Source: Flectonema sp. DT1601 | Taxonomy: Eukaryota | Assembly (NCBI GenBank): GCA_964019425.1 | Contig: OZ025795.1 | Span: forward strand, 1,240,001-1,304,000 | Direction of reading: 5' to 3' | Length of the DNA stretch: 64,000 bases | In this document: piece by piece, positions 1-53,205 of the stretch | How positions within the stretch are numbered: the stretch's first letter is position 1 | How the letters are laid out: each line of letters begins with the position of its first letter | Notes under the pieces: model-generated | Databases searched by the model: none | Seen by the model: only the letters and a program-made list of their open reading frames with translations | Told to the model about the DNA's origin: nothing | Made by a program: the position numbers and the translations under genes

Positions 1-2283
1 TTTTTCTTTCCTCCCCAAAAAAAAAAAATATTTTTATTTGATTGCAAAGCAACGATAACTTATTTGAATTGAGTCTTCTGTTTGCTGTGAGTTACCCTCC
101 TGGAGCACTTATAATATAGAGCAACAGAGATGTTTTAATAACTAAACCACACTAAGTCACTAGTTACACAACTCAATACAGTAACATGCTAAGAATATGG
201 AAAGAGTAAAGCTTTGAATACTTTCTGAGAGGCGGGCTGGGTGAAATCCAACCATTATTTGTTTGTTGTCCTACAATTTTTTGCATTTGATTTTCTTAGA
301 TGACTGATTACTATTAGTACTATGCAGGGGTGCCAGGCGCCGAGGGAAGCGTTTTTTATATTATGACAACACGGAAAAAGAGATGTTTATGCAGCTACGT
401 TAGAAACATTTATTATAAAGTAAAGTCTTCTACGTCATCTGCGGAGTGTTTGCCAATACTAACATTACCCTTTAGTAAACATGGATCATAACTAACGTTT
501 TATTTATTGTTAACTCTGGTACAATACAGATATTTAGTTCTTCATAAATATACTCAAAACATTCAACCCATCTTTTCTTTTCTGTTTGGTCAGGGAAATT
601 AATAATTATAACTTGTGAGATCTGCTGGATCTGTCCGCAGCATTGGAGAAGTTAAAACACTTCCAGGAAGTGTTAGTTCTGCTGTGTCGAAAGTTAATCT
701 GTTTTGTACACAGTGAATAAAGGAAGGTCTGTGAAGAGGGTTTCCGGTACAAAGCCACGCACTTGTACTATTTATACAAATATTATTATATTATATTAAT
801 GACCAAACTATCACCTTCATTTCTAAGGATACCTTCTTATTATCACAGCCTTGTAGTTGATTGCAACAACAACTCTTCTCGATCACTTTGTAATTAGAAC
901 ATCACTTTATTTAGTCAATATTGCTTTCTTTGTAAGAATCTAATAACATGGAGCATCCTTGTAGTATTCGATAACCAGACATTAGACAAATCAGGGATCG
1001 TATTTATAATTGTTTCCTCCCGCTTGGCGTTGAAACATTTCCACTTTTTTGCAGCCGTTTCAACACTTGTGAATAACACCTTCTTCTCCTTCAGGAAACT
1101 ACTCAAAACAACAATGCAGGTTTTTGTGACGTGTCCGGATTTGGGATTCCCCGCAGTGTCAGTCACGACTGGTGTTGATTCCCTTGTGAGCGAAGTGTTG
1201 ACGGCGGCGGCTGGGGAGTGGGATGTGGATCCGAACTGTCGTTCGCTGGTGACACGCTTTGCGAAAGTGAGCGACTAGCAGATTGTGGAGTGGTTGGAGA
1301 GAGCGAGTTGGAGATGTGGAAGAAGCGGTTTCGTATATTCAGTAAATGCTGGTTTGTTGATGATTCAAAACGGGAGAAGCTGCTTCGTTGGCTAAGAGAA
1401 CACAATGAGGAATACTTATGCCTTGACACCACAACATTCACAGAGGATGGTTGCCTCAGTATTAAGGGTGATTTGCTTCCTTCTGATGCCGAACGGATTT
1501 CTTTCCGCAATTCAAATCCCGACATCTCAGCCATCTCACAAGTTGTCACTATTGGAAATCGTTTCTTGTATCTTTGTTCACAAATCACTTCTCTTGATCT
1601 TTCAGGTCTTAGTAGTGTCACCACCATTGGAGATGGTTTCTTGCGTGGCTGTTCACAAATCACTTCTGTTGATCTTTCAGGTCTTAGTAGTGTCACCACC
1701 ATTGGAAATGCTTTCTTGCGTGGCTGTTCACAAATCACTTCTCTTGATCTTTCAGGTCTTTGTAGTGTCACCACTATTGGACATAGTTTCTTGTCTCATT
1801 GTTCACAAATCACTTCTCTTGACCTTTTACGTCTTAGTAGTGTCACCACTATTGGAAGTTTTTTCTTGTCTTCCTGCTCGCAAATCACTTCTCTTGATCT
1901 TTCACGTCTTAGTAGTGCCACCACTATTGGAGATGCATTCTTGTGTCACTGTTCACAAATCACTTCTCTTGATCTTTCAGGTCTTAGTAGTGTCACCACC
2001 ATTGGAGATGCTTTCTTGTCTTCCTGCTCGCAAATCACTTCTCTTGATCTTTCTGGTCTTAGTAGTGTCACCACCATTGGAAATGTTTTCTTATATCACT
2101 GTTCACAAATCACTTCTCTTGATCTTTCAAGTCTTAGTAGTGTCACCACTATTGGAAATAGTTTCTTGTCTCATTGTTCACAACAATATCACTGTTCACA
2201 AGTCACTTCTCTTGACCTCTCAGGTCTTGGTAGTGTTACCGCTGTTGGAAGTTTTTTCTTGTCTTCCTGTTTACAAATTACTT

Positions 2284-2356
2284 GGGTAACGAAACTCGGA
2301 CAGCGCGCCTCCTCGTGGTGTTGCCTGGATGCACCTTGTGTGTAACTAGAGTGCTG
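2284..2356 (+). ncRNA. HDV-like self-cleaving ribozyme at the element 5' end (copy 1)
   Basis: P1 GGGUAAC/GUUGCCU (G1-U wobble), P2 CAGCGC/GUGCUG, P3 GCC/GGU, L3 UCCUCGU, P1.1 CC/GG, P4 UGCAC/GUGUA, and J4/2 ACUAGA with candidate catalytic C2346. Confidence 0.85.
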
Positions 2357-2989
2357 ACGTATTGTTGTTGTTGCTGTGTATTCTTTTACCCCCGTTTTAT
2401 TTTCCGGTAGCCTAACCTTTAAAAAAAAAGGACAACATAGCAGAAGGTCAGGTGATCCGGCCCGGGATACTCAGGCACCCAGAGCTCACAGGGGCCACCG
2501 GGTTTTTATTTTTTCCTTAGTGGCATGATTTCCCTTTAACCCCATTTCCTTCAAACTTCCCCCGTTTAGTCTTTTCACGCATGGGGGGATTATAAGTTCA
2601 GGTCGCCTGAAATGTATTATGTTGTGTATCAGCCCCGCGAGTTACTCGGGGAGCTCCCATGCAATGTGTGGAGAAAGAGGCCATCCCTCCCCCTACCTCT
2701 CTGCTTTACTACGTCGTTTTTTGTGTGTGGCATTTCTTTTCTTATATTCTTTTCTTTTCAATCTTGTTCCTTCACACGCAGTTGTTCGAGCGGTTGTGAA
2801 CCACCTTGGGTCTCTTACGGTCTCCAAGCTACTGTTGTGCGAAGAAACAAATCTGTTGGTGCGGTGGCCTTCCGACGCCACCTGGACCGCAACTCGTTCA
2901 CAGTGCCCTACCCGGTTCTCCACCGGACCGCCTGAGCGACGGGATCCATGGGATTCAAACCCCTAAACACTGGTTAATTTTTTTTTTTT
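2284..2989 (+). mobile_element. Family A non-autonomous retroelement (SINE-like), copy 1
   Basis: Near-identical to 3544-4194 and 4290-4982. Flanked by the direct repeat ttcctgtttacaaattactt (2264-2283 and 2990-3009). 3' T run at 2978-2991. No long ORF. Confidence 0.9.
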
Positions 2990-3543
2990 TTCCTGTTTAC
3001 AAATTACTTCTCTTGACCTCTCAGGTCTTAGTAGTGTCACCACTATAGGAAATTATTTCTTGTTTAAGTGTACACAAATCACTTCTGTTGACCTTTCAGA
3101 TCTTAGTAGTGTGATTAAAATAGGCGATAGGTTCCTTGCTAATTGCAATGCACTTGAATCTGTTCAGCTGCCTGTAAATAATGGCGCTCTCTTTGAGGAG
3201 TCTGTGGAAGCAGCGATTAATCATTAAGTTTTGTTTTGTTAATTTTTTATTTAGCTTTCTTTCAATTTACGAGTTTTCTTATTATTTTTCATTCTTTCTA
3301 AAGTGTGTTGTATTTTTGTTTTGTTTGTGCTCTCGCTGCTGTGAAAGCTTAGGAATACTGAAGAATACTTATGCCTTGACACCACAACATTCACAGAGGA
3401 TGGTTGCCTCAGTATTAAGGGTGATTTGCTTTCTTCTGATGCCGAACGGATTTCTTTCCGCAATTCAAATTCCGACATCTCAGCCATCTCACAAGTTGTC
3501 ACTATTGGAAATCGTTTCTTGTCTAGCTGTTCACAAATCACTT

Positions 3544-3616
3544 GGGTAACGAAACTCGGACAGCGCGCCTCCTCGTGGTGTTGCCTGGATGCACCTTGTG
3601 TGTAACTAGAGTGCTG
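3544..3616 (+). ncRNA. HDV-like ribozyme (copy 2)
   Basis: Identical to 2284-2356. Confidence 0.85.
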
Positions 3617-4194
3617 AGGTAGCCTAACCTTTAAAAAAAAAAAAAAGGACAACATAGCAGAAGGTCAGGTGATCCGGCCCGGGATACTCAGGCACCCAGA
3701 GCTCACAGGGGCCACCGGGTTTTTATTTTTTCCTTAGTGGCATGATTTCCCTTTAACCCCATTTCCCTCAAACTTCCCCCGTTTAGTCTTTTCACGCATG
3801 GGGGGATTATAAGTTCAGGTCGCCTGAAATGTATTAACAGTATCAGCCCGCGAGTTACTCGGGGAGCTCCCATGCAATGTGTGGAGAAAGAGGCCATCCT
3901 TCCCCCTACCTCTCTGCTTTACTACGTCGTTTTTTGTGTGTGGCATTTCTTTTCTTATATTCTTTTCTTTTCAATCTTGTTCCTTCACACGCAGTTGTTC
4001 GAGCGGTTGTGAACCACCTTGGGTCTCTTACGGTCTCCAAGCTACTGTTGTGCGAAGAAACAAATCTGTTGGTGCGGTGGCCTTCCGACGCCACCTGGAC
4101 CGCAACTCGTTCACAGTGCCCTACCCGGTTCTCCACCGGACCGCCTGAGCGACGGGATCCATGGGATTCAAACCCCTAAACACTGGTTAATTTT
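3544..4194 (+). mobile_element. Family A retroelement, copy 2 (internal ~48-bp deletion just after the ribozyme)
   Basis: Same termini (gggtaacgaaac ... aacactggttaa + T run) and same insertion point in the LRR unit. Left and right flanks come from different repeat variants. Confidence 0.9.
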
Positions 4195-4289
4195 TTCCTG
4201 CTCGCAAATCACTTCTCTTGATCTTTCAGGTCTTGGTAGCGTCACCACCATAGGAGATTATTTCTCGTCTTCCTGTTCACAAATTACTT

Positions 4290-4362
4290 GGGTAACGAAA
4301 CTCGGATAGCGCGCCTCCTCGTGGTGTTGCCTGGATGCACCTTGTGTGTAATTAGAGTGCTG
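4290..4362 (+). ncRNA. HDV-like ribozyme (copy 3), candidate catalytic C changed to U
   Basis: Same fold as copy 1. The first P2 pair C-G becomes U-G, and J4/2 reads AUUAGA (T4352). Confidence 0.75.
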
Positions 4363-4982
4363 ACGTATTGTTGTTGCTGTGTATTCTTTTACCCCCGTTT
4401 TATTTTCCGGTAGCCTAACCTTTAAAAAAAAAAAGGACAACATAGCAGAAGGTCAGGTGATCCGGCCCGGGATACTCAGGCACCCAGAGCTCACAGGGGC
4501 CACCGGGTTTTTATTTTTTCCTTAGTGGCATGATTTCCCTTTACCCCCATTTCCTTCAAACTTCCCCCGTTTAGTCTTTTCACGCATGGGGGGATTATAA
4601 GTTCAGGTCGCCTGAAATGTATTAACAGTATCAGCCCGCGAGTTACTCGGGGAGCTCCCATGCAATGTGTGGAGAAAGAGGCCATCCTTCCCCCTACCTC
4701 TCTGCTTTACTACGTCGTTTTTTGTGTGTGGCATTTCTTTTTTTATATTCTTTTCTTTTCAATCTTGTTCCTTCACACGCAGTTGTTCGAGCGGTTGTGA
4801 ACCACCTTGGGTCTCTTACGGTCTCCAAGCCACTGTTGTGCGAAGAAACAAATCTGTTGGTGCGGTGGCCTTCCGACGCCACCTGGACCGCAACTCGTTC
4901 ACAGTGCCCTACCCGGTTCTCCACCGGACCGCCTGAGCGACGGGATCCATGGGATTCAAACCCCTAAACACTGGTTAATTTT
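4290..4982 (+). mobile_element. Family A retroelement, copy 3
   Basis: Direct repeat ttcctgttcacaaattactt at 4270-4289 and 4983-5002. T run at 4979-4984. Confidence 0.9.
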
Positions 4983-5319
4983 TTCCTGTTCACAAATTAC
5001 TTCTCTTGACCTTTCTGGTCTTAGTAGTGTCACCACTACTGGACAACGTTTCTTATATCACTGTTCACAAATCACTTCTGTTGACCTCTCAGGTCTTAGT
5101 AGTGTGATTAAAATAGGCAATAGGTTCCTTGGTAATTGCAATGCACTTGAATCTGTTCAGCTGCCTGTAAATAATGGCGCTCTCTTTGAGGAGTCTGTGG
5201 AAGCAGCGATTAATCATTAAGTTTTGTTTTGTTAATTTTTTAATTTTCTTTCTTTCAATTTGAGTTTTTTTTTCTTTCTTTCTTAATTCTTCTAAAGTGT
5301 GTAATTTATAAAGTTGAGA

Positions 5320-5640
5320 ACCTATTTTCTAGTGGTAAAATTTTCGGGTAAGCCCACAGTACAATCATAATGCTTTAGACAACTGGGGGGTGAACGAACC
5401 TCGGTACCGTTCCGCGGAGGTTTTCTATTATCTTTCATGGTAGGAGGGCATCTGGCACATATGGTCGTGTTATGGAGAGTAGAAGGATGCTTGATATGGA
5501 ATAAGAATGGTTTTTAATCTCTTTTCACCTTTCCTCCATATTTAATCATTGTATCAATTTACAATCAGGTAGGTTGTAACGGACTACAGAACATGGGACG
5601 CATCAGTCTGATAGTGTGGTCCCCGAATTTCCAGATTCGA
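5320..5640 (-). mobile_element. Decayed fragment of a restriction-like endonuclease (RLE) non-LTR retrotransposon ORF
   Basis: The minus strand, across stops and frameshifts, reads TDASHVL (zinc-knuckle end) ... N*YN (decayed RHN) ... RPYVPDALL ... HYDCTV. A related copy lies at 6130-6330. Confidence 0.55.
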
Positions 5641-6330
5641 CAACACCTTCTGATCAATAAGACAAAATTTTCTTTCCCCCTTTTTATGTTTTCTTTTTCT
5701 AAACGTACCTTTTATTTGATTAACAACTACAAATATTCTTTCAGTCAAGTTGATATTCATTTTGTTTTTAATATCTAAAGTTGTTACTGTTTTTTCATGT
5801 CAAAGTTTAACCCCCTCTTAGGTGTTTGTTTGCTATTGTTAAGTTTTGAAGACGTTTTAATTATTAATTTACATATTGTCATAGACGAGGTCTCCATACG
5901 ACTGGTCGGACTCCAAGCTTTCTGAATTACTTTCTCGGTTAAGGCGCCTCCTGCAGTGAAATCCCCTCGCAAGATTTTTATTGTCCTTTCCAAGACCCTT
6001 CAAAAGAAGAATTCCGGCGCAGTTATGACCTTAAACTGACTGTCATCTTACCTGATCCTTTTGGTTTTTATTTCTTGCTGAGTGATATGGCTATGTGCTG
6101 CCTAATTTTTTGTGGTACATTTCTAAAGCTTTTCGGTAAGCCCGCAGTACAATTGTAATGCTTTGGACAACTGGGGGTGAACGATCCTCGGTACTGTTCC
6201 GGGGTTTTCTATTTTCTTTCGTGGAGTGTGGGCATATGGCACATATGGTCGTATTATAAAGAAAGATGTATATGAAAGAAAGAAGATTTTTTATATTTTT
6301 CACCTTTCCCCCACTCCCAGGTCATTTCTC
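5640..6330 (-). mobile_element. Second decayed RLE-element fragment with putative 3' UTR
   Basis: 6130-6330 is homologous to 5340-5540. 5640-5820 is homologous to 46360-46525. Confidence 0.45.
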
Positions 6331-6493
6331 TTTTATTTTCTTTAGTTGTTTACAACCTGTTAGCCTCTGGGCAAGGTGGAGGCTGGAAGTCGATCACTTC
6401 CAGCCAATACTATGAAACTACAATCTTCGCGATTGGGTCCTTACTGATGCGGGCTACCCAGACCCCTCGTAGTCACCAGTTTGTATTTTGCTA
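6229..6493 (+). repeat. Dispersed repeat containing the family B structured module; followed by an A-rich run
   Basis: Near-identical to 7129-7392. The core 6415-6493 recurs at 7631-7710. Perfect hairpin ggctggaagt/acttccagcc at 6381-6405. Confidence 0.85.
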
Positions 6494-6532
6494 AAAAAAA
6501 GAAGAAAAAAAAAAAAATCCCATTGCGAGGTT

Positions 6533-6689
6533 CTTCACGAATCACTTCTCTTGATCTTTCTGGTCTTAGTAGTGTGATTAATTTTGGAGAGAACGTCCTT
6601 GTTGATTGCAATGCACTTAAATCTGTTCAGCTGCCTGTAAATAATGGAGCTCTCTTTGAAGAGTTTATGAAAGCAGTGATTATCATTAA
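6533..6689 (+). pseudogene. Isolated last LRR unit + C-terminal cap of the LRR gene family
   Basis: Encodes SRITSLDLSGLSSVINFG...CNALKSVQLPVNNGALFEE. Confidence 0.8.
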
Positions 6690-7128
6690 TTTGCCAGTCA
6701 ACTGTTTCACAACTGATGTTTATTTATTGTTAACTCTAGTACAATCTTTATTTATTTCTCGGTCATTATTAATACGAAAACCAACAGTGTAGCAGGATGG
6801 CTGCTTGTCCCTACCTAAGAAATGTTCATTTTTATTTTTTTATAAAGATTGTTTATTTCTTGACGAGACTATAGGCGAAACCTACACTCTGCCGTATTAC
6901 ATTATACCCTGGTTTTGGTTTCCCAGGGCTCACGATTAATTCGTAATTGAATAACTCGATTCCGTACTGCATGACAACACGGAATGATAAGTTAGAAACA
7001 TTAATTATAATGTAGAGCAAGTACGTCATTTGCAGAGTGTTAGCCTGTATTAACATTTTTAGTCACTGTGTCATGAGTTTTTTTAATTTTATTATTGAGC
7101 TTTGATACAATACGGAGATTTATATTCA

Positions 7129-7416
7129 TGGGCATATGGCACATGTGGTCGTATTATAAAGAAAGATGTATATGAAAGAAAGAAGATTTTTTATTTTTTT
7201 CACTTTCCCCCACTCCCAGATCATTTCTCTTTTATTTTCTTTTGTTGTTTACAACCTGTTAGCCTCTGGGCAAGGTGGAGGCTGGAAGTCGATCACTTCC
7301 AGCCAATACTATGAAACTACAATCTTCGCGATTGGGTCCTTACTGATGCGGGCTACCCAGACCCCTCGTAGTCATCAGTTTGTATTTTGCTAACTAAACT
7401 AAACTAAACTAAACTA
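7129..7416 (+). repeat. Family B copy 2 with (ACTAA)n tail
   Basis: Matches 6229-6493. Tail is taactaaactaaactaaactaaacta. Confidence 0.85.
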
Positions 7417-7630
7417 TATTCGTGTGAAAACAGTCTTTCCCCCGCCGGTGTCCCGCCGAACCGAATTGGGCCTGGCACAACCCCTACGCAGAAGTAATCT
7501 GCACCCTTTCATGGTGTAGTTAGTTCTTTGTTGGATACAATTCTGGTGTTTGTCTTTACCTTCAATCTTAACATATACTTATTTCTCAGGTGCATAAAGT
7601 GATGGAAAGCGAATTACTACCGAAGCTATA

Positions 7631-7717
7631 AAACTACAATCTTTGCGATTGGGTCCTTACTGATGTGGGCTACTTAGACCCCTCGTAGTCATCAGTTCTG
7701 TATTTTGCTAACTAAAA
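7631..7717 (+). repeat. Family B core, copy 3
   Basis: aaactacaatc...gattgggtccttactgatg...cgtagtcatcag...tattttgctaactaaa. Confidence 0.8.
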
Positions 7718-40402: not shown

Positions 40403-42907
40403 ATGCAGGTTTTTGTGACGTGTCCGGATTTGGGATTCCCCGCAGTGTCATTCACGACTGGTGTTGATTCTCTTGTGAGCGAAGTGTTGACGGCGGCGGC
40501 TGGGGAGTGGGATGTGGATCCGGAGGAAGTTGAACTGTCGTTCGCTGGTGACACGCTTTGCGAAAGTGAGCGACTAGCAGATCGTGGAGTTGTTGGAGAG
40601 AGCGAGTTGGAGATGTGGAAGAAGCGGTTTCGTATATTCAGTAAATGCTGGTTTGTTGATGATTCAAAACGGGAGAAGCTGCTTCGTTGGCTAAGAGAAC
40701 ACAATGAGGAATACTTATGCCTTGACACCACAACATTCACAGAGGATGGTTGCCTCAGTATTAAGGGTGATTTGCTTCCTTCTGATGCCGAACGGATTTC
40801 TTTCCGCAATTCAAATCCCGACATCTCAGCCATCTCACAAGCTGTCACTATTGGAAATCGTTTCTTGTATCTTTGTTCACAAATCACTTCTCTTGATCTT
40901 TCACGTCTTAGTAGTGTCACCACTATTGGAGATGATTTCTTGCGTGGCTGTTCACAAATCACTTCTCTTGATCTTTCAGGTCTTAGTAGTGTCACCACTA
41001 TTGGAGATGATTTCTTGCGTGGCTGTTCACAAATCACTTCTCTTGATCTTTCAGGTCTTAGTAGTGTCACCACTATTGGACGTAGTTTCTTGTCTCATTG
41101 TTCACAAATCACTTCTCTTGATCTTTCAGGTCTTAGTAGTGTCATCACTATTGGAAGTCTTTTCTTGTCTTCCTGCTCACAAATCACTTCTCTTGATCTT
41201 TCAGGTCTTAGTAGTGTCACCACTATTGGAGATGATTTCTTGCGTGGCTGTTCACAAATCACTTCTCTTGATCTTTCAGGTCTTAGTAGTGTCACCACTA
41301 TTGGACGTAGTTTCTTGTCTCGTTGTTCACAAATCACTTCTCTTGATCTTTCAGGTCTTAGTAGTGTCACCACTATTGGAGATGATTTCTTGCGTGGCTG
41401 TTCACAAATCACTTCTCTTGATCTTTCAGGTCTTAGTAGTGTCACTACTATTGGACGTAGTTTCTTGTCTCGTTATTCACAAATCACTTCTCTTGATCTT
41501 TCAGGTCTTAGTAGTGTCATCACTATTGGAAGTCTTTTCTTGTCTTCCTGCTCACAAATCACTTCTCTTGATCTTTCAGGTCTTAGTAGTGTCACCACTA
41601 TTGGAGATGATTTCTTGCGTGGCTGTTCACAAATCACTTCTCTTGATCTTTCAGGTCTTAGTAGTGTCACCACTATTGGAGATGATTTCTTGCGTGGCTG
41701 TTCACAAATCACTTCTCTTGATCTTTCAGGTCTTAGTAGTATCACCACTATTGGACGTAGTTTCTTGTCTCATTGTTCACAAATCACTTCTCTTGATCTT
41801 TCAGGTCTTAGTAGTGTCATCACTATTGGAAGTCTTTTCTTGTCTTCCTGCTCACAAATCACTTCTCTTGATCTTTCAGGTCTTAGTAGTATCACCACTA
41901 TTGGACGTAGTTTCTTGTCTCATTGTTCACAAATCACTTCTCTTGATCTTTCAGGTCTTAGTAGTGTCACCACTATTGGAGATGATTTCTTGCGTGGCTG
42001 TTCACAAATCACTTCTCTTGATCTTTCAGGTCTTAGTAGTGTCACCACTATTGGAGATGATTTCTTGCGTGGCTGTTCACAAATCACTTCTCTTGATCTT
42101 TCAGGTCTTAGTAGTATCACCACTATTGGACGTAGTTTCTTGTCTCATTGTTCACAAATCACTTCTCTTGATCTTTCAGGTCTTAGTAGTGTCATCACTA
42201 TTGGAAGTCTTTTCTTGTCTTCCTGCTCACAAATCACTTCTCTTGATCTTTCAGGTCTTAGTAGTGTCACCACTATTGGAGATGATTTCTTGCGTGGCTG
42301 TTCACAAATCACTTCTCTTGACCTTTTACGTCTTAGTAGTGTCACCACTATTGGACGTAGTTTCTTGTCTCGTTATTCACAAATCACTTCTCTTGATCTT
42401 TCAGGTCTTAGTAGTGTCACCACTATTGGAGATGATTTCTTGCGTGGCTGTTCACAAATCACTTCTCTTGATCTTTCAGGTCTTAGTAGTGTCACCACTA
42501 TTGGACGTAGTTTCTTGTCTCATTGTTCACAAATCACTTCTCTTGATCTTTCAGGTCTTAGTAGTGTCATCACTATTGGAAGTCTTTTCTTGTCTTCCTG
42601 CTCACAAATCACTTCTCTTGATCTTTCAGGTCTTAGTAGTGTCACCACTATTGGACATAGTTTCTTGTCTCATTGTTCACAAATCACTTCTCTTGACCTC
42701 TCACGTCTTAGTAGTGTCACCACTATTGGAAGTCATTTCTTGTCTTCCTGCTCACAAATCACTTCTCTTGATCTTTCTGGTCTTAGTAGTGTGATTAAAA
42801 TAGGCGATAGGTTCCTTGCTAATAGCAATGCACTTGAATCTGTTCAGCTGCCTGTAAATAATGGCGCTCTCTTTGAGAAGTCAGTGGAAGCAGCGATTAA
42901 TCATTAA
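40403..42907 (+). CDS. Ubiquitin-like domain + 26 x 25-aa BspA/TpLRR-type leucine-rich repeat protein
   Basis: ATG at 40403 follows ttcttctccttcag. The N-terminal ~75 aa has a ubiquitin-like pattern (MQVFV...VELSFAGDTL...LAD.GV...ELEM). Repeats are CSQITSLDLSGLSSVTTIGxxFLxx. Confidence 0.92.
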   Translation: MQVFVTCPDLGFPAVSFTTGVDSLVSEVLTAAAGEWDVDPEEVELSFAGDTLCESERLADRGVVGESELEMWKKRFRIFSKCWFVDDSKREKLLRWLREHNEEYLCLDTTTFTEDGCLSIKGDLLPSDAERISFRNSNPDISAISQAVTIGNRFLYLCSQITSLDLSRLSSVTTIGDDFLRGCSQITSLDLSGLSSVTTIGDDFLRGCSQITSLDLSGLSSVTTIGRSFLSHCSQITSLDLSGLSSVITIGSLFLSSCSQITSLDLSGLSSVTTIGDDFLRGCSQITSLDLSGLSSVTTIGRSFLSRCSQITSLDLSGLSSVTTIGDDFLRGCSQITSLDLSGLSSVTTIGRSFLSRYSQITSLDLSGLSSVITIGSLFLSSCSQITSLDLSGLSSVTTIGDDFLRGCSQITSLDLSGLSSVTTIGDDFLRGCSQITSLDLSGLSSITTIGRSFLSHCSQITSLDLSGLSSVITIGSLFLSSCSQITSLDLSGLSSITTIGRSFLSHCSQITSLDLSGLSSVTTIGDDFLRGCSQITSLDLSGLSSVTTIGDDFLRGCSQITSLDLSGLSSITTIGRSFLSHCSQITSLDLSGLSSVITIGSLFLSSCSQITSLDLSGLSSVTTIGDDFLRGCSQITSLDLLRLSSVTTIGRSFLSRYSQITSLDLSGLSSVTTIGDDFLRGCSQITSLDLSGLSSVTTIGRSFLSHCSQITSLDLSGLSSVITIGSLFLSSCSQITSLDLSGLSSVTTIGHSFLSHCSQITSLDLSRLSSVTTIGSHFLSSCSQITSLDLSGLSSVIKIGDRFLANSNALESVQLPVNNGALFEKSVEAAINH
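40874..42823 (+). repeat. Tandem array of 26 x 75-bp coding repeats
   Basis: 1950 bp = 26 x 75. Unit tgttcacaaatcacttctcttgatctttcaggtcttagtagtgtcaccactattggaNNNNNtttcttgNNNNNN. Confidence 0.97.
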
Positions 42908-43886
42908 GTTTTGTTTTGTTAATTTTTTATTTAGCTTTCTTTCAATTTACGAGTTTTCTTAGTATTTTTCATTCTTTCTAAAGTGTGTTGTATTTTTGTT
43001 TTGTTTGTGCTCTCGCTGCTGTGAAAGCTTCAATCCAATTTATTCTATGAACCTCTTCACGGAGTAGAATTAATTTAAATATAAAATTTCTGTTCAAATA
43101 TTGTTCGAATTGTAGTTCCAGGTGTTGCTTTGTAATGAACTTATTGAGTACTGGCTTTGTGGGAATCTAATAACACCTTCTTGTCCTTCAGCGAATTACT
43201 GAAAACAACAATGCAAAATTTTTTGTTTTAATGATGACGTTTTCCATTCGTCCTGATGATTTTGCAATGAGATAATTCTTTTTTTAGTAAAAGCAGGACT
43301 TCCTTTTTTGAGTTACAAAAAATTATTTATCGTTTTGGTTTCTCGGGGCTCACTACTTTCATTTATTTTATTTTATTTATTCATTTGTTTTCTTTTCTTT
43401 TCTCTATAGTTATCCTCATATCATTTTCTGACAACAATCGGACAAGGTGGAAAGCTGACAATAGGCATATTGTGTTCATTATGCCCCGTCAGCCGAAGCT
43501 ATAATAAAACAATCCTAATAAGATTGAGTCTAATTACGTTGCTGTTGTCCTCGTAGCTCTATTGGAGTTAACCCGATGCTCTTTAGTTTGCTGTCTATCA
43601 GCGATGCACAGTACGCAATGTATTGGACTTCCTTATTCTAAAGATACCTTCTTATTATCGCAGCCTTGTAGTTGATTGTAGTAAACCATATTTCATTCCT
43701 AAGGTGATGCAATGCTGTGGGTCACGGTGTGAACTGTTCAAGATGATAATGGTAGTGTTGGTTTTTGTAATCAAGAGTTAGACGACGACTTCTTTATTGA
43801 AGCTGTCAGTCCGTGGGTTTTCTTGTTGATATATGTTTTATGTGATTGTTTTTCTTTATCTTAATTTATCTATCAGAATAAATAAT

Positions 43887-44594
43887 ATGGCTGGTTATCC
43901 ACCACCACCGGGAGCTGGAGGCTACCCACCAGCTCAGGGTGCACCGGGAGGCTACCCTCCTGCGCCGGGTGCACCGGGAGGTTACCCACAGGCAAGTGCT
44001 CCAGGATACCCACCAGCTCAGGGTGCACCGGGAGGCTACCCTCCTGCCCCGGGAGCTCCTGGAGGTTACCCACAGGCAAGTGCTCCAGGATACCCACCTG
44101 CGCCTGGTGGTGGTGCACCAGTTGGATATTCCCCGGATGGCGGAGCTTACCCACAAAGTGGTTACCCCCCACAGGGAGGTGCTCCTGGCTACCCTCCAGC
44201 TCAGGCAGGTTACCCACCGGGAGGGTACCCTGGTTCTACCCCTTCGGGTGGAATGGTCAGCCAGTGCGGACCTGGCGAGGAGTATGTCCTGGAAGATGCA
44301 AAGGGAAACCGAATCCCAATCAGCTACGAAGAAGTTTGCGCAGCCGGTGGAGAAGGCGCCTCATACCAGAAAGAAGTTCCTACCAACGGAGCTAAAAGAC
44401 GAGGTATTGGAAAAATTTTATTAGCGGCAGCAGCAGCAGGTGTAGCTCTCTACATGCTGAGTGGCATAATTAAAAAAGTTAGAAGAGGAAGCAGCGGCAA
44501 GAAAGGAAGGAAGCGTTCAGGCTCGTCGTCGTCATCATCATCTTCGTCATCGTCGTCATCGTCGTCGTCATCATCATCTTCATCATCTTCCTAA
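43887..44594 (+). CDS. Pro/Gly/Tyr-rich (GYPP repeat) single-TM protein with poly-Ser tail, paralogue 1
   Basis: ATG at 43887, GYPPA repeats, hydrophobic [15 protein letters not shown], then a basic patch and a Ser run. Confidence 0.85.
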
Positions 44595-45175
44595 GATGAA
44601 CGATGTGCTCAATTATTTGTTTTACTTGCTATTAAAGAACGCAGCTAAAGAACAGCTGACATATTTCTATACAAGCCGGTGCAATATACAACTAACCTCG
44701 CAGGTATAGTTCGATGATTTCGGAGACGACTTGTTTGAACTGGGAAGAGGCTGAAAGCTGACTGCTGATGTCTGCTGATGTATTCTATTTCCCTTTCATG
44801 TTCGCCTCCCCACCGCCCCGCACTCTAGGAACTTTTTTTTAAAAGCGTCACTGTGACCATACAAAAAGCCGTGCGTCTTCGGCAAAAAGAAGTCAGAGAT
44901 GCCGACAAGATCTCTTCCATGGGAAAATTGATGTTGGATTTTATAAACAGACAATGAACTTAATTTGATCTGAGGGCACAATACAGCTTCCCATCCGATT
45001 TATTAGAAAAGATTTGGACGACGACTTCTTTATTGAAGCTTTATGTATTCATGGTGTTGTTTTTACTTTTTCTTGCTCCGTTTACCTTTCGCGAGATCTT
45101 CTCGTAGGTCTCCTTGTTGATATGTTTTATGTGATTGTTTTTCTTTATCTTAATTTATCCATCAGAATATATAAC

Positions 45176-45871
45176 ATGGCTGGTTATCCACCACCACCGG
45201 GAGCTGGAGGCTACCCACCAGCTCAGGGTGCACCAGGAGGCTACCCTCCTGCGCCGGGTGCACCGGGAGGTTACCCACCTGCCCCGGGAGCTCCGGGAGG
45301 TTACCCACAGGCAAGTGCTCCGGGATACCCACCTGCACCTGGTGGGGGGTATCCGCCTCAGGGTGGTGCACCAGTTGGATATTCCCCGGATGGCGGAGCT
45401 TACCCACAAAGTGGTTACCCCCCACAGGGAGGTGCTCCTGGCTACCCTCCAGCTCAGGCAGGTTACCCACCGCAGGCTGGTTACCCAACAGGAGGATACC
45501 CTGGTGCAACCCCTTCGGGTGGAATGGTCAGTCAGTGCGGACCTGACGAGGAGTATGTTCTGGAAGATGAAAAGGGAAACCGAATCCCAATCAGCTACGA
45601 AGAAGTTTGCGCAGCCGGTGGAGAAGGCGCCTCATACCAGAAAGAAGTTCCTACCAACGGAGCTGTTGGAGATAGAGGTATTGGTAAGATTTTATTAGCG
45701 GCAGCAGCAGCAGGTGTAGCTCTCTACATGCTCAGAGGAATAATTAGAAAAGTAAGAAGAGGAAGCAGCGGCAAGAAAGGAAAAAAGGACAAGAAAGATA
45801 AAAAGAAGAAGAAGGACAAGAAGAAGAAGAAGAAGCGTTCAGGTTCGTCATCATCTTCTTCATCTTCCTAA
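45176..45871 (+). CDS. Pro/Gly/Tyr-rich single-TM protein with Lys/Asp-rich tail, paralogue 2
   Basis: Tandem duplicate of 43887-44594, including the upstream acceptor region and 3' flank. Confidence 0.85.
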   Translation: MAGYPPPPGAGGYPPAQGAPGGYPPAPGAPGGYPPAPGAPGGYPQASAPGYPPAPGGGYPPQGGAPVGYSPDGGAYPQSGYPPQGGAPGYPPAQAGYPPQAGYPTGGYPGATPSGGMVSQCGPDEEYVLEDEKGNRIPISYEEVCAAGGEGASYQKEVPTNGAVGDRGIGKILLAAAAAGVALYMLRGIIRKVRRGSSGKKGKKDKKDKKKKKDKKKKKKRSGSSSSSSSS

Positions 45872-51147: not shown

Positions 51148-53205
51148 ATGGTTAAAAAAAAGAAAATGAAAAATGAAAACGGAGGGACAGACATTTTGGC
51201 AGAAGCAGCAAAGGACTGTTCTCGATGGATAAATCACTACAGAAGTTTGGAACCCATTAGTCGTACAAAACGTAAGAATCGATGTACTGAACGACAGTTT
51301 ATAGCACCTGCTTGGATAGAGACATCTTGTAAGCCAATCCTTATCCACATTCCTGTGAATGATAAGTTAGATAGTTGGGAAACAGATGGAAACGGTCTTC
51401 AAAGATCCTGGTATCCAAAATACACTTCGCTAATGGATTCAGCAGCGGTGGATGTTTTTGATTTTTTTAAGAATGAAAGTAAAAGTTATTCAACTGAGTC
51501 GAAACGTTTGGAAAATATAAGAACTAAAATATTCAGCGATATAGACATTAATTTCGCAGATTCCTATCGACGAGTTTTCTGGAGGAGTCGAATGTACTCT
51601 CCGTCGAACTTTATATGGAAAGGAAGAACAGAATGTAATGTAGTTCACGGTAGAATCCCTCAAAGTATTTTAATAATTGGATCTGATTTACATCCATGGT
51701 CAAAAAAGTTTAGTGGAGATAAAGTTTCCTGTACTCCGAGGGTTCAATTTAAAAATAAGAATTCACCAAACGACTGTAATCCCCTTTTAAAAAGGAAACA
51801 ATCCTTGATCGAGAAAACACCTGTTACAGCAGCTGAATATAGATCCGTCCTACCCGATGACAGTCATCCATTATTAAAACGGCAAAAGGAAATTTTCGGA
51901 AGAACTTCTGGTCCCGCTATTCTAACATCGCAGTATCAATCCGTGATTCCGGATTTTAATAAAAGGCCGTCAGTTGTCAATGTTCCCAACAACAGTCATC
52001 CTCTTTTAAAACAGCAAAAGGAAACTTTCGGAAGAACTTCTGCTGCCGCTATTCTAGCATCGCAGTGTCAATCCGTGATTCCGGATTTTAATAAAAAACC
52101 GTCGGTTGTCGATGTTCCCAACAACAATTACCCTCTTTTAGAACAGCAAAAGGAAATTTTCGGAAGAACTTCTGCTGCCGCTATTCTAACATCGCAGCGT
52201 CAATCCGTGATTCCGGATTTTAATAAAAAACCGTCGGTTGTCGGTGTTTCCAACAACAATTACCCTGTTTTAAAACAGCAAAAGCAAGCTTTCGGAAGAA
52301 CTCCTGCTGCCGCTATTCTAACATCGCAGTATCAATCCGTGATTCCGGATTTTAATAAAAAACCGTCAGTTGTCGATGTTCCCAACAACAATTACCCTTT
52401 ATTAAAAAAGCAAAAGGAAACTTTCGGAAGAACTTCTGCTGCCGCTATTCTAGCATCGCAGCGTCAATCCGTGATTCCGGATTTTAATAAAAGGCCGTCA
52501 GTTGTTGATGTTCCCAACAACAGTCATCCTCTTTTAAAACAACAAACTTTCAATGGGAATTCGGTCGCTGCTGTTCCTGCTCAAACTGGTGTGAAAAAGT
52601 ATCCTCTAGATCCAGCAGTTGTGAATACAGCTATTCCAGCATACCCGATACAACATGTTAATGATCATAGGTATCCTCATGTTGAAACTGCTCCTCCGCT
52701 TCCTTCGGGATTTCAAGCACCACCTATGCCGTACTACATGACCAATCATATGATTGAACAACAAATGGCAAATTGGCATGCACATTACAAATCACAGATG
52801 GATGCTTATCTTTACTTTCAGCGATCGCAATTAGCAAGTCAAATGCAAAGAGATACCCGGACGGTGATGGATTCATCTGCGAGAAGTGCTATGAGAAGTC
52901 AACTGTGTCAGCAAGAAAAGGAAATTGAAAAATCAAAATCGTCCAAACCCGAAATAGAAGTACTTCACACTAATGACGAAGTGATAACAATCGATTCGGA
53001 GGATGAGATTATTACGGTAGATGATGTTGAACCTTCTGTCGTGGCGAGTTACGTTCACATCCCACCTGTTCCTCAACGGGTGGATGTAGTCATTAATGAT
53101 AAAACACTCACGGTGACAGCACCAGTCAGTTCTCGGGGAAAACGAAAAGGAACTCGCGTCGGTATTCGATCTGGTGTTCAGGACACTAAACCAACAGAGA
53201 TTTGA
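51148..53205 (+). CDS. Hypothetical protein with 44-aa tandem repeats
   Basis: 685-aa ORF with a central repeat block. The exact start codon is uncertain. Confidence 0.75.
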   Translation: MVKKKKMKNENGGTDILAEAAKDCSRWINHYRSLEPISRTKRKNRCTERQFIAPAWIETSCKPILIHIPVNDKLDSWETDGNGLQRSWYPKYTSLMDSAAVDVFDFFKNESKSYSTESKRLENIRTKIFSDIDINFADSYRRVFWRSRMYSPSNFIWKGRTECNVVHGRIPQSILIIGSDLHPWSKKFSGDKVSCTPRVQFKNKNSPNDCNPLLKRKQSLIEKTPVTAAEYRSVLPDDSHPLLKRQKEIFGRTSGPAILTSQYQSVIPDFNKRPSVVNVPNNSHPLLKQQKETFGRTSAAAILASQCQSVIPDFNKKPSVVDVPNNNYPLLEQQKEIFGRTSAAAILTSQRQSVIPDFNKKPSVVGVSNNNYPVLKQQKQAFGRTPAAAILTSQYQSVIPDFNKKPSVVDVPNNNYPLLKKQKETFGRTSAAAILASQRQSVIPDFNKRPSVVDVPNNSHPLLKQQTFNGNSVAAVPAQTGVKKYPLDPAVVNTAIPAYPIQHVNDHRYPHVETAPPLPSGFQAPPMPYYMTNHMIEQQMANWHAHYKSQMDAYLYFQRSQLASQMQRDTRTVMDSSARSAMRSQLCQQEKEIEKSKSSKPEIEVLHTNDEVITIDSEDEIITVDDVEPSVVASYVHIPPVPQRVDVVINDKTLTVTAPVSSRGKRKGTRVGIRSGVQDTKPTEI
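51865..52548 (+). repeat. Five complete 132-bp coding tandem repeats plus a partial unit
   Basis: Units start at 51865, 51997, 52129, 52261, 52393 and 52525 (HPLLKQQKETFGRTSAAAILASQ.QSVIPDFNK.PSVVDVPNN). Confidence 0.92.

Follow-up and report, generated by a model that had tools for sequence, protein, structure and literature searches.

The DNA analyzed here is a 64,000-nucleotide (nt) window of the genome assembly of Flectonema sp. DT1601, a member of a diplonemid genus (contig OZ025795.1, positions 1,240,001 to 1,304,000 of the forward strand). It contains genes for leucine-rich repeat (LRR) proteins, two of which are interrupted by copies of a short non-coding element with a predicted ribozyme at its first base; these genes, the element copies, and their parts all lie on the + strand. 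Host gene 1 (1114-3227) consists of an N-terminal domain followed by BspA-type LRR units, one of which holds copy 1 of the element, and it carries a frameshift near 1230, placed within 1200-1280 of its N-terminal domain by comparison with an intact paralogue. Host gene 2 (3359-5220) is a partial tandem LRR paralogue that begins mid-gene and holds copies 2 and 3. The junction of the tandem duplication lies at 3350-3360, where the 3' untranslated region (UTR) of gene 1 meets gene 2 midway through its N-terminal domain. The intact paralogue (40403-42907), a BspA-type LRR protein by its Pfam match (LRR_5, E 3e-76), offers 26 target units, all unoccupied. A few unit variants recur among these 26 units (40846-42792) in a higher-order pattern.

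A BLASTN search with copy 1 found exactly three copies of the short element in the window, at 2284-2991 (copy 1, with its T run at 2978-2991), 3544-4196 (copy 2, which has a 48-nt deletion after the ribozyme), and 4290-4984 (copy 3). Substitutions among them amount to 0.8 to 1.3%. Each begins directly after the sequence CAAAT[C/T]ACTT of the 75-bp LRR unit and ends in a T run, of 14, 6, and 6 nt, respectively, and of about 5 nt in two sequencing runs. The longest internal stop-free frame is 145 amino acids (aa), and no Pfam family was found in any of the three frames. The original prediction, made from the sequence of the window, had proposed three sense-orientation, non-coding copies sharing a start nucleotide and a T-run end; the BLASTN, frame, and Pfam scans bear out each part of that description.

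Perfect target duplications flank copies 1 and 3, as had also been proposed. The 18 bp on the left and right of copy 1 (2266-2283 and 2992-3009) are the same sequence, as are those of copy 3 (4272-4289 and 4985-5002), with 0 mismatches in either case, and the duplications extend to as much as 20 bp if two T's are assigned to the target. Each of these two 18-mers is private to its own flanks and recurs in no other of the window's 44 LRR units, where the chance of two random units having an equal 18-mer is 13%. The 75-nt flanks of copies 1 and 3 differ by 16 to 17% and the 3' UTRs by 10%, whereas the elements themselves differ by 1.3%, which speaks against a plain duplication; the C-terminal coding part differs by 3.7%. 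However, both copies sit in the penultimate LRR unit and have in common an AATT variant that is rare (4 of 44 units), so that the window alone leaves room for duplication, and both lie within a 1.1-kb block of 93% identity.

The first 73 nt of copy 1 (2284-2356) can be folded into a predicted hepatitis delta virus (HDV)-like ribozyme, that is, a nested double pseudoknot of P1, P1.1, P2, P3, and P4 with an L3 loop of the type UCCNCGY. In this fold, P1 pairs 2284-2290 with 2320-2326 and includes a G1-U wobble, P2 pairs 2301-2306 with 2351-2356, and P3 pairs 2307-2309 with 2317-2319 around L3 (2310-2316); the GG at 2327-2328 is followed by the P4 region (2329-2345) and by the predicted catalytic C of J4/2, which is present in copy 1 (C2346) and in copy 2. 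A descriptor of this fold, composed after the sequence had been seen, matches the window only at base 1 of copies 1 and 2, and it matched none of 100 window shuffles and none of 5,000 element shuffles. Minimum-energy folding did not recover the pseudoknot (z scores of 0.27 and 0.92).

The distribution of the element was followed across 66 LRR family proteins, gathered by two protein searches with the LRR gene and by cluster look-ups; bacterial-type and unrelated LRR proteins among the matches were excluded. They are probably derived from the same assembly as the window. Seven of eight window proteins occur on one contig of their source, and VPS28 falls into a 90% cluster with Flectonema neradi. 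The gene calls of the paralogues continue through the junctions into the inserts. In this way 24 of the 66 run into an insert, 20 into the short element and 4 into a longer one described below, and 22 of the 24 do so at the exact junction. Seventeen end in the first peptide of the short element at the exact junction, and three more contain the short element either in a shifted frame (one) or as a 5'-altered copy (two); the long element is entered in frame in three proteins and in a shifted frame in one. The rest comprise 31 proteins with a normal C-terminal cap, 2 that end right after the residues QIT, and 9 that end otherwise. Length limits favor truncated genes, and the counts of 24 in 66, or of 19 in 53 from one LRR search taken alone, are therefore no estimate of occupancy. 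The insertions are located in about units 1 to 9 of the host genes. The two proteins that terminate directly after QIT, at the target codon (P0050 and P0080), are possibly variant insertions; they stand outside the 24 and were labeled as inserted in the tree described below but left out of the clade test.

Residues next to the junctions vary from gene to gene. The upstream 14-residue peptides are all different in 20 of 20 in-frame junctions. The last five residues, which fall inside the duplicated 18 bp, occur in 9 variants among the 17 short-element junctions. Of 22 aligned rows, two of them isoforms of one Flectonema locus, every row has Cys at position -5 and 20 have Thr at -1. The preference for a Ser-Ser-Cys unit beginning "ttcctg" that had been noted at the right-hand junctions is local: it holds in 4 of 20 protein junctions elsewhere, and one junction from a sequencing run begins with ACTG. 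The N-terminal domains of 17 interrupted genes are 63 to 96% alike. A tree was built from 50 N-terminal domains, with 16 of the 66 proteins left out (domain absent or frameshifted) and the intact gene of the window added. On this tree the insertion label requires 13 changes, 10 of them forced by well-supported branches, a figure near the shuffled mean of 16, and grouping the 15 short-element genes in a single clade is rejected (approximately unbiased [AU] test, p 8.4e-5). Recombination could also scatter the label, and the variation adjacent to the junctions is thus the stronger argument for independent insertions. The original claim of independent insertion accordingly gains from the paralogue junctions and the AU test, while the part of it that relied on the window falls short because of the shared AATT variant and penultimate unit. 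A search of metagenome contigs with the LRR gene gave just one match, at 27%.

Junctions were also recovered starting from the element itself. Portions of the element were found in four of six listed sequencing runs, and contigs of two of these contain three junctions: a 5' and a 3' junction in run X1 and a 3' junction in X4, a marine metatranscriptome. All three are in LRR sequence at the same phase, with new unit variants. Each is a single contig of depth 2 to 3, and X1 may be related to the source of the window; runs X2, X3, and X6 gave no junction. A 34-nt match to 2423-2456 in X1 and X6 is probably due to chance. Searching metagenome contigs with the element head gave no match, and the 3' 252 nt of the element are no more stable than shuffled sequence (z -0.97). 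An internal 36-nt motif (2787-2822 in copy 1 and again at 4788-4823) directly follows a pyrimidine tract plus CAG. In two marine metatranscriptomes, many short contigs match it with four to six differences, and long GC stems enclose it there, as in a structured RNA. The motif had no match in Rfam and none among viral contigs, and an 18-mer from it had 10 bacterial matches among genome contigs, which is about the chance level for 596 Gb.

A second, coding family uses the same base. In three proteins (P0003, P0010, and P0102), different LRR genes lead at the same Thr-Trp junction into an open reading frame (ORF) of up to 995 residues. Protein P0097 is the same long-family DNA read in another frame, and the two frames agree over 28 codons, which also shows these gene calls to be unspliced. 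The DNA fixed by the two frames has the same junction and the same HDV-like P3/L3 core as the short element, and in its head P1 (6 bp) and P2 are changed in sequence yet still paired. Judging from its sequence profile and a predicted structure, we read the conserved ORF of this family as ORF1 of a long interspersed nuclear element (LINE). Among 1.84 billion representatives, 76 are related to the conserved part, many of which match via a short C-terminal repeat only. An alignment of 291 columns links the profile of this part to the N-terminal region of a protein of 2,834 aa (hhalign 99.6%, E 3e-24) in which Pfam finds OTU, apurinic/apyrimidinic endonuclease (APE)-type, and reverse transcriptase (RT) domains, the RT with a score slightly below the Pfam cut-off. 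The predicted model (predicted local distance difference test score, 85.5) has tandem RNA recognition motif (RRM)-like domains. Compared with RRM folds these domains reach at best a Z of 7.9 with a root mean square deviation of 2.6 over 70 residues, which is middling by the standards of the tool and serves as a lead only. The best Foldseek match is to a tandem RRM (E 1.2e-3), a sequence search of the PDB with the profile gave nothing under E 0.05, and Atlas scores of 0.77 to 0.82 link ORF1 to DUF4780 and PRE_C2HC clusters, again as leads only. No relative of ORF1 was found among viral contigs. Four proteins (P0154 and P0196 to P0198) are single-ORF, LINE-like proteins of 2,678 to 2,834 residues that combine ORF1-like, OTU, APE, and RT domains with an NGN-type motif; the distant relative P0154 has APE and no Pfam match to a restriction-like endonuclease (RLE). 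The original prediction had compared the element with the RLE-bearing R2, R4, CRE, and NeSL families; this is probably the wrong branch, because the nearest relative with a polymerase has an APE-type endonuclease. It had also called for a search for longer elements that share both termini and encode an RT plus an RLE or APE endonuclease; the long coding family was found at the same base, but no polymerase ORF for it. A separate search for partner polymerases with residues 1130-2000 of P0154 (shorter proteins, E 1e-20) found none among 7,990 scored, although it was a poor test.

Relatives of ORF1 occur in another species and at other targets. In the transcriptome of Flectonema neradi, one locus (isoforms P0122 and P0200) joins a divergent LRR sequence to a related ORF1 at the same phase. 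This ORF1 is 42% identical to that of the long family, and a sister family (46%; proteins P0124, P0204, P0205, P0201, P0202, P0206, and P0207) enters two cathepsin paralogues, 58% alike (P0124/P0204 and P0205), at a single codon. The sister family also occurs in a repeated unknown ORF, four times on a single contig. For each of the three families, the peptides at the junction could encode an HDV-like core that starts from there, as could 10 of 19,290 control windows. In all three the ORF is open from the junction, with the first Met 92 to 289 residues downstream, and ahead of that Met, 54 to 67 residues after the junction, stands the motif N[KR]xAHxxNGN. The motif pattern, which was composed after the motif had been seen, matched 18 of 209 fetched proteins, all of them relatives of ORF1.

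A similar motif is known from viruses. In the totivirus-like infectious myonecrosis virus (IMNV) and Omono River virus (OmRV), the capsid protein is released by cleavage after NKxMHxxNGN (PMC7968656). The ORF1s of the long elements keep the spacing of the viral motif, but Ala replaces Met, the motif stands in a retroelement ORF1 instead of in the viral polyproteins, and cleavage is putative. The in-frame ORF1 together with the motif suggests that the protein may be translated as a fusion of host sequence and ORF1 and then cut. We tentatively extend this to a diplonemid LINE clade in which each member is specialized on a single codon within a multicopy family of protein genes (LRR genes here, cathepsins for the sister family) and uses the host gene as an expression cassette. 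Uncut, spliced-leader-capped mRNA would be translated through the ribozyme into ORF1, the viral-type N[KR]xAHxxNGN motif would sever the host half, and the RNA cut by the ribozyme would be the template, which the short element would exploit as well. The Flectonema transcript, which contains an uncut LRR-ORF1 fusion, supports such a cassette. However, proteins can reveal in-frame fusions only, a related family (P0121) is supplied with a Met of its own within the ribozyme, and a frame open from the junction would be explained equally well by non-AUG initiation.

Our preferred explanation for the short element is that it likely spreads as a non-autonomous retroelement, via target-primed reverse transcription by the proteins of a longer LINE that uses the same base. 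This scheme is drawn from the anatomy of the element and from the short internally deleted elements (SIDEs) derived from R2 (PMC3414825). The element would be transcribed within the RNA of the LRR gene, and the predicted ribozyme would cut just before G1, which is the 5' junction, and so release a unit RNA. The partner's endonuclease, probably of the APE type, would nick both strands, with some 18 bp separating the nicks, which would fall between codons ahead of the invariant Cys and within the codon following the Thr. The U-rich 3' end, perhaps together with read-through LRR sequence, would prime cDNA synthesis, and recombination between copies may afterwards give hybrids such as copy 2. The core of the original prediction, a non-autonomous, ribozyme-headed, sequence-specific element with the LRR coding repeat as its target, is supported by the predicted fold, the paralogues, and the sequencing runs. 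That the short element moves by sequence-specific retrotransposition we regard as highly probable; that the long family seen here is its mobilizer we put forward with somewhat better than even confidence.

A number of observations weigh against this explanation. The left and right 18-mers of copy 2 differ at 3 of 18 positions, and this copy is thus without a true duplication; it is probably a recombinant with hybrid flanks. Pairs of LINEs and short interspersed nuclear elements (SINEs) usually have poly(A) rather than a T tail. Copy 3 carries T (4352) in place of the predicted catalytic C, and in the silkmoth R2 ribozyme a C-to-U change at the catalytic position abolished cleavage (PMC3774820). 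Rfam returned no HDV family in nine rows at E up to 10, its models omitting some retroelement ribozymes. The heads of the short and long families differ, in P1 (7 bp and 6 bp) and also in P2 and P4, and no RT or endonuclease ORF was seen for the long family in the sequence covered, its ORF1 and the first ~80 nt of its DNA. Two of the 24 protein junctions are off-site (P0081 and P0092). The protein junctions were found via LRR queries or their clusters, which leaves three junctions free of that bias, and the probable origin of the paralogues in the window's assembly makes theirs a distribution within one genome, not an independent organism.

It is conceivable that the short element is moved by some other autonomous family, for example one with an RLE of the CRE/SLACS type, and that the long family shares its site independently. 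The unlike heads would agree with this, as would the result of a tblastn search of the window with the long ORF1, which found no similarity, and the annotation of SLACS-like RTs in Diplonema papillatum (PMC10161547). However, the two families agree exactly in the base of the 5' junction and share the core motif of the ribozyme, and we think another mobilizer rather unlikely. About equally unlikely in our judgment is a merely relative preference like that of ingi and L1Tc, in which the LRR unit would be a hot spot for a loose endonuclease consensus and many copies would lie elsewhere. L1Tc and NARTc do have such relative specificity (PMC5814959), the ascertainment was by LRR queries, and the sister family has entered at least two unrelated host ORFs (the cathepsins and the repeated ORF). 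Yet LRR units hold all three element-side junctions and all three window copies, with no further copy in the 64 kb, and the phase is conserved in another species at 42% ORF1 identity; the numbers are small in each case. Relative preference is compatible with the mechanism proposed above, the difference being one of degree.

Much less probable is a history without any sequence-specific enzyme, in which old insertions, one or a few in number, came to be distributed over LRR paralogues and units through unequal crossing over and gene conversion. Copies 1 and 3 are alike in their penultimate unit, AATT variant, and 93%-identical 1.1-kb block, copy 2 has hybrid flanks, and recombination too could scatter the label on the tree, all of which such a history would accommodate. 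It does not readily account for the variation inside the junction-adjacent 18 bp (9 variants in 17), for copies 1 and 3 each having their own variant on both sides, or for the use of the same base by a second family of different sequence and by the relative in another species. The remaining alternative, which we find scarcely credible, is that the insert is intron-like and is spliced out, leaving a working LRR gene. There is a GT at base 3 of the element, the 3' end is pyrimidine rich, and a pyrimidine tract with CAG lies at 2782; however, in copies 1 and 3 donors in the first 10 nt give no in-frame product with AGs near the 3' junction, and the sole in-frame pairs take donors upstream in the LRR, deleting 30 to 45 nt.

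The sequence around and beyond the host genes contains further repeats. A second, unrelated repeat family occupies 5336-7700 in fragmented form (two to three copies per segment) and terminates either with an A run or with (AACTA)n. A copy of this family adjoins a 3' LRR fragment at 6520-6692. A tandem pair of Pro/Gly-rich genes, 82% alike, lies at 43812-45782, and a 132-bp coding tandem repeat in five copies at 51874-52546. In protein P0007, the N-terminal domain of the LRR family is joined to a WD40 propeller.

The original prediction knew of no described target of this kind, which does not hold. In trypanosomes, ingi and the non-autonomous RIME share one insertion site in the multicopy, protein-coding retrotransposon hot spot (RHS) genes, and their insertion turns many RHS members into pseudogenes (PMC7563717); TcTREZO of Trypanosoma cruzi lies mostly within pseudogenes of the family that encodes mucin-associated surface proteins (MASP) (PMC5814959, PMC3155523). 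The pairs RIME/ingi and NARTc/L1Tc resemble the elements described here in being euglenozoan, with an HDV-like ribozyme at base 1 (as in L1Tc/NARTc; PMC5814959) and a fixed site in a multicopy protein family. Unlike in RIME/ingi, the target here is a coding repeat in tandem array, which offers many sites in each gene, and in contrast to both pairs there is an 18-bp duplication and a T tail, where the tail of L1Tc is poly(A) (PMC5814959). The long element also differs from ingi and L1Tc, which are only relatively site-specific, in that its RRM-like ORF1 is separate and closes with a stop. A hallmark of ingi/L1Tc, the first ~77 nt (Pr77) identical between short and long elements, is absent here, where the short and long heads, compared only with each other, differ. 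TcTREZO is likewise short and site-specific and mostly found in a multigene protein family, but it is a composite of other genomic sequences, and no ribozyme or partner is mentioned for it in the available text.

Other parallels come from outside the Euglenozoa. The R2 SIDEs and R2/R1 hybrid SIDEs of Drosophila are short and non-coding, consist of a 5' HDV-like ribozyme and a 3' end, and have a fixed site in a co-transcribed multicopy gene; in the hybrids the head comes from another element and the duplications are 14 bp long (PMC3414825). Their target, however, is rDNA and not a protein-coding LRR unit, and a derivation of short from long is only a candidate here. By analogy, the short element would work like RIME in RHS or like an R2/R1 SIDE. 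Sequence-specific insertion by an APE-type endonuclease would be shared with LINEs of the Tx1 and R1 clades (PMC4640811), with the reservation that APE is known here from the nearest polymerase-bearing relative. The targets listed for specific non-long-terminal-repeat elements are rRNA, spliced leader, and tRNA genes along with transposons, microsatellites, and telomeric repeats, and those listed for Tx1/R1 elements include no protein-coding repeats (available text of PMC4640811). LINE and SLACS proteins are listed in the paper on the Diplonema genome, which leaves their analysis for later (PMC10161547). No earlier description of the short element was found in the literature searched, a scope in which subscription papers fell largely outside and Repbase/Dfam was not covered.

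Sequence-specific retroelements are known mainly from RNA genes and simple repeats, and the protein-gene cases in RHS and MASP represent hot spots for elements of loose specificity. In the present case, a target within a coding repeat has been retained across diplonemid species in spite of variation over most of the duplicated 18 bp, and a sister family has shifted to cathepsins. The LRR and cathepsin families are a natural series for studying shifts in the specificity of the LINE endonuclease or of RNA-target pairing, which would be useful for targeted-insertion tools. For the host, a large share of an LRR family with a possible, putative role at the cell surface or in defense is cut short by one element, and the many target sites per gene drive recombination. 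If true, fusion and cleavage would explain how an uncapped, ribozyme-headed LINE achieves protein synthesis in a trans-splicing organism.

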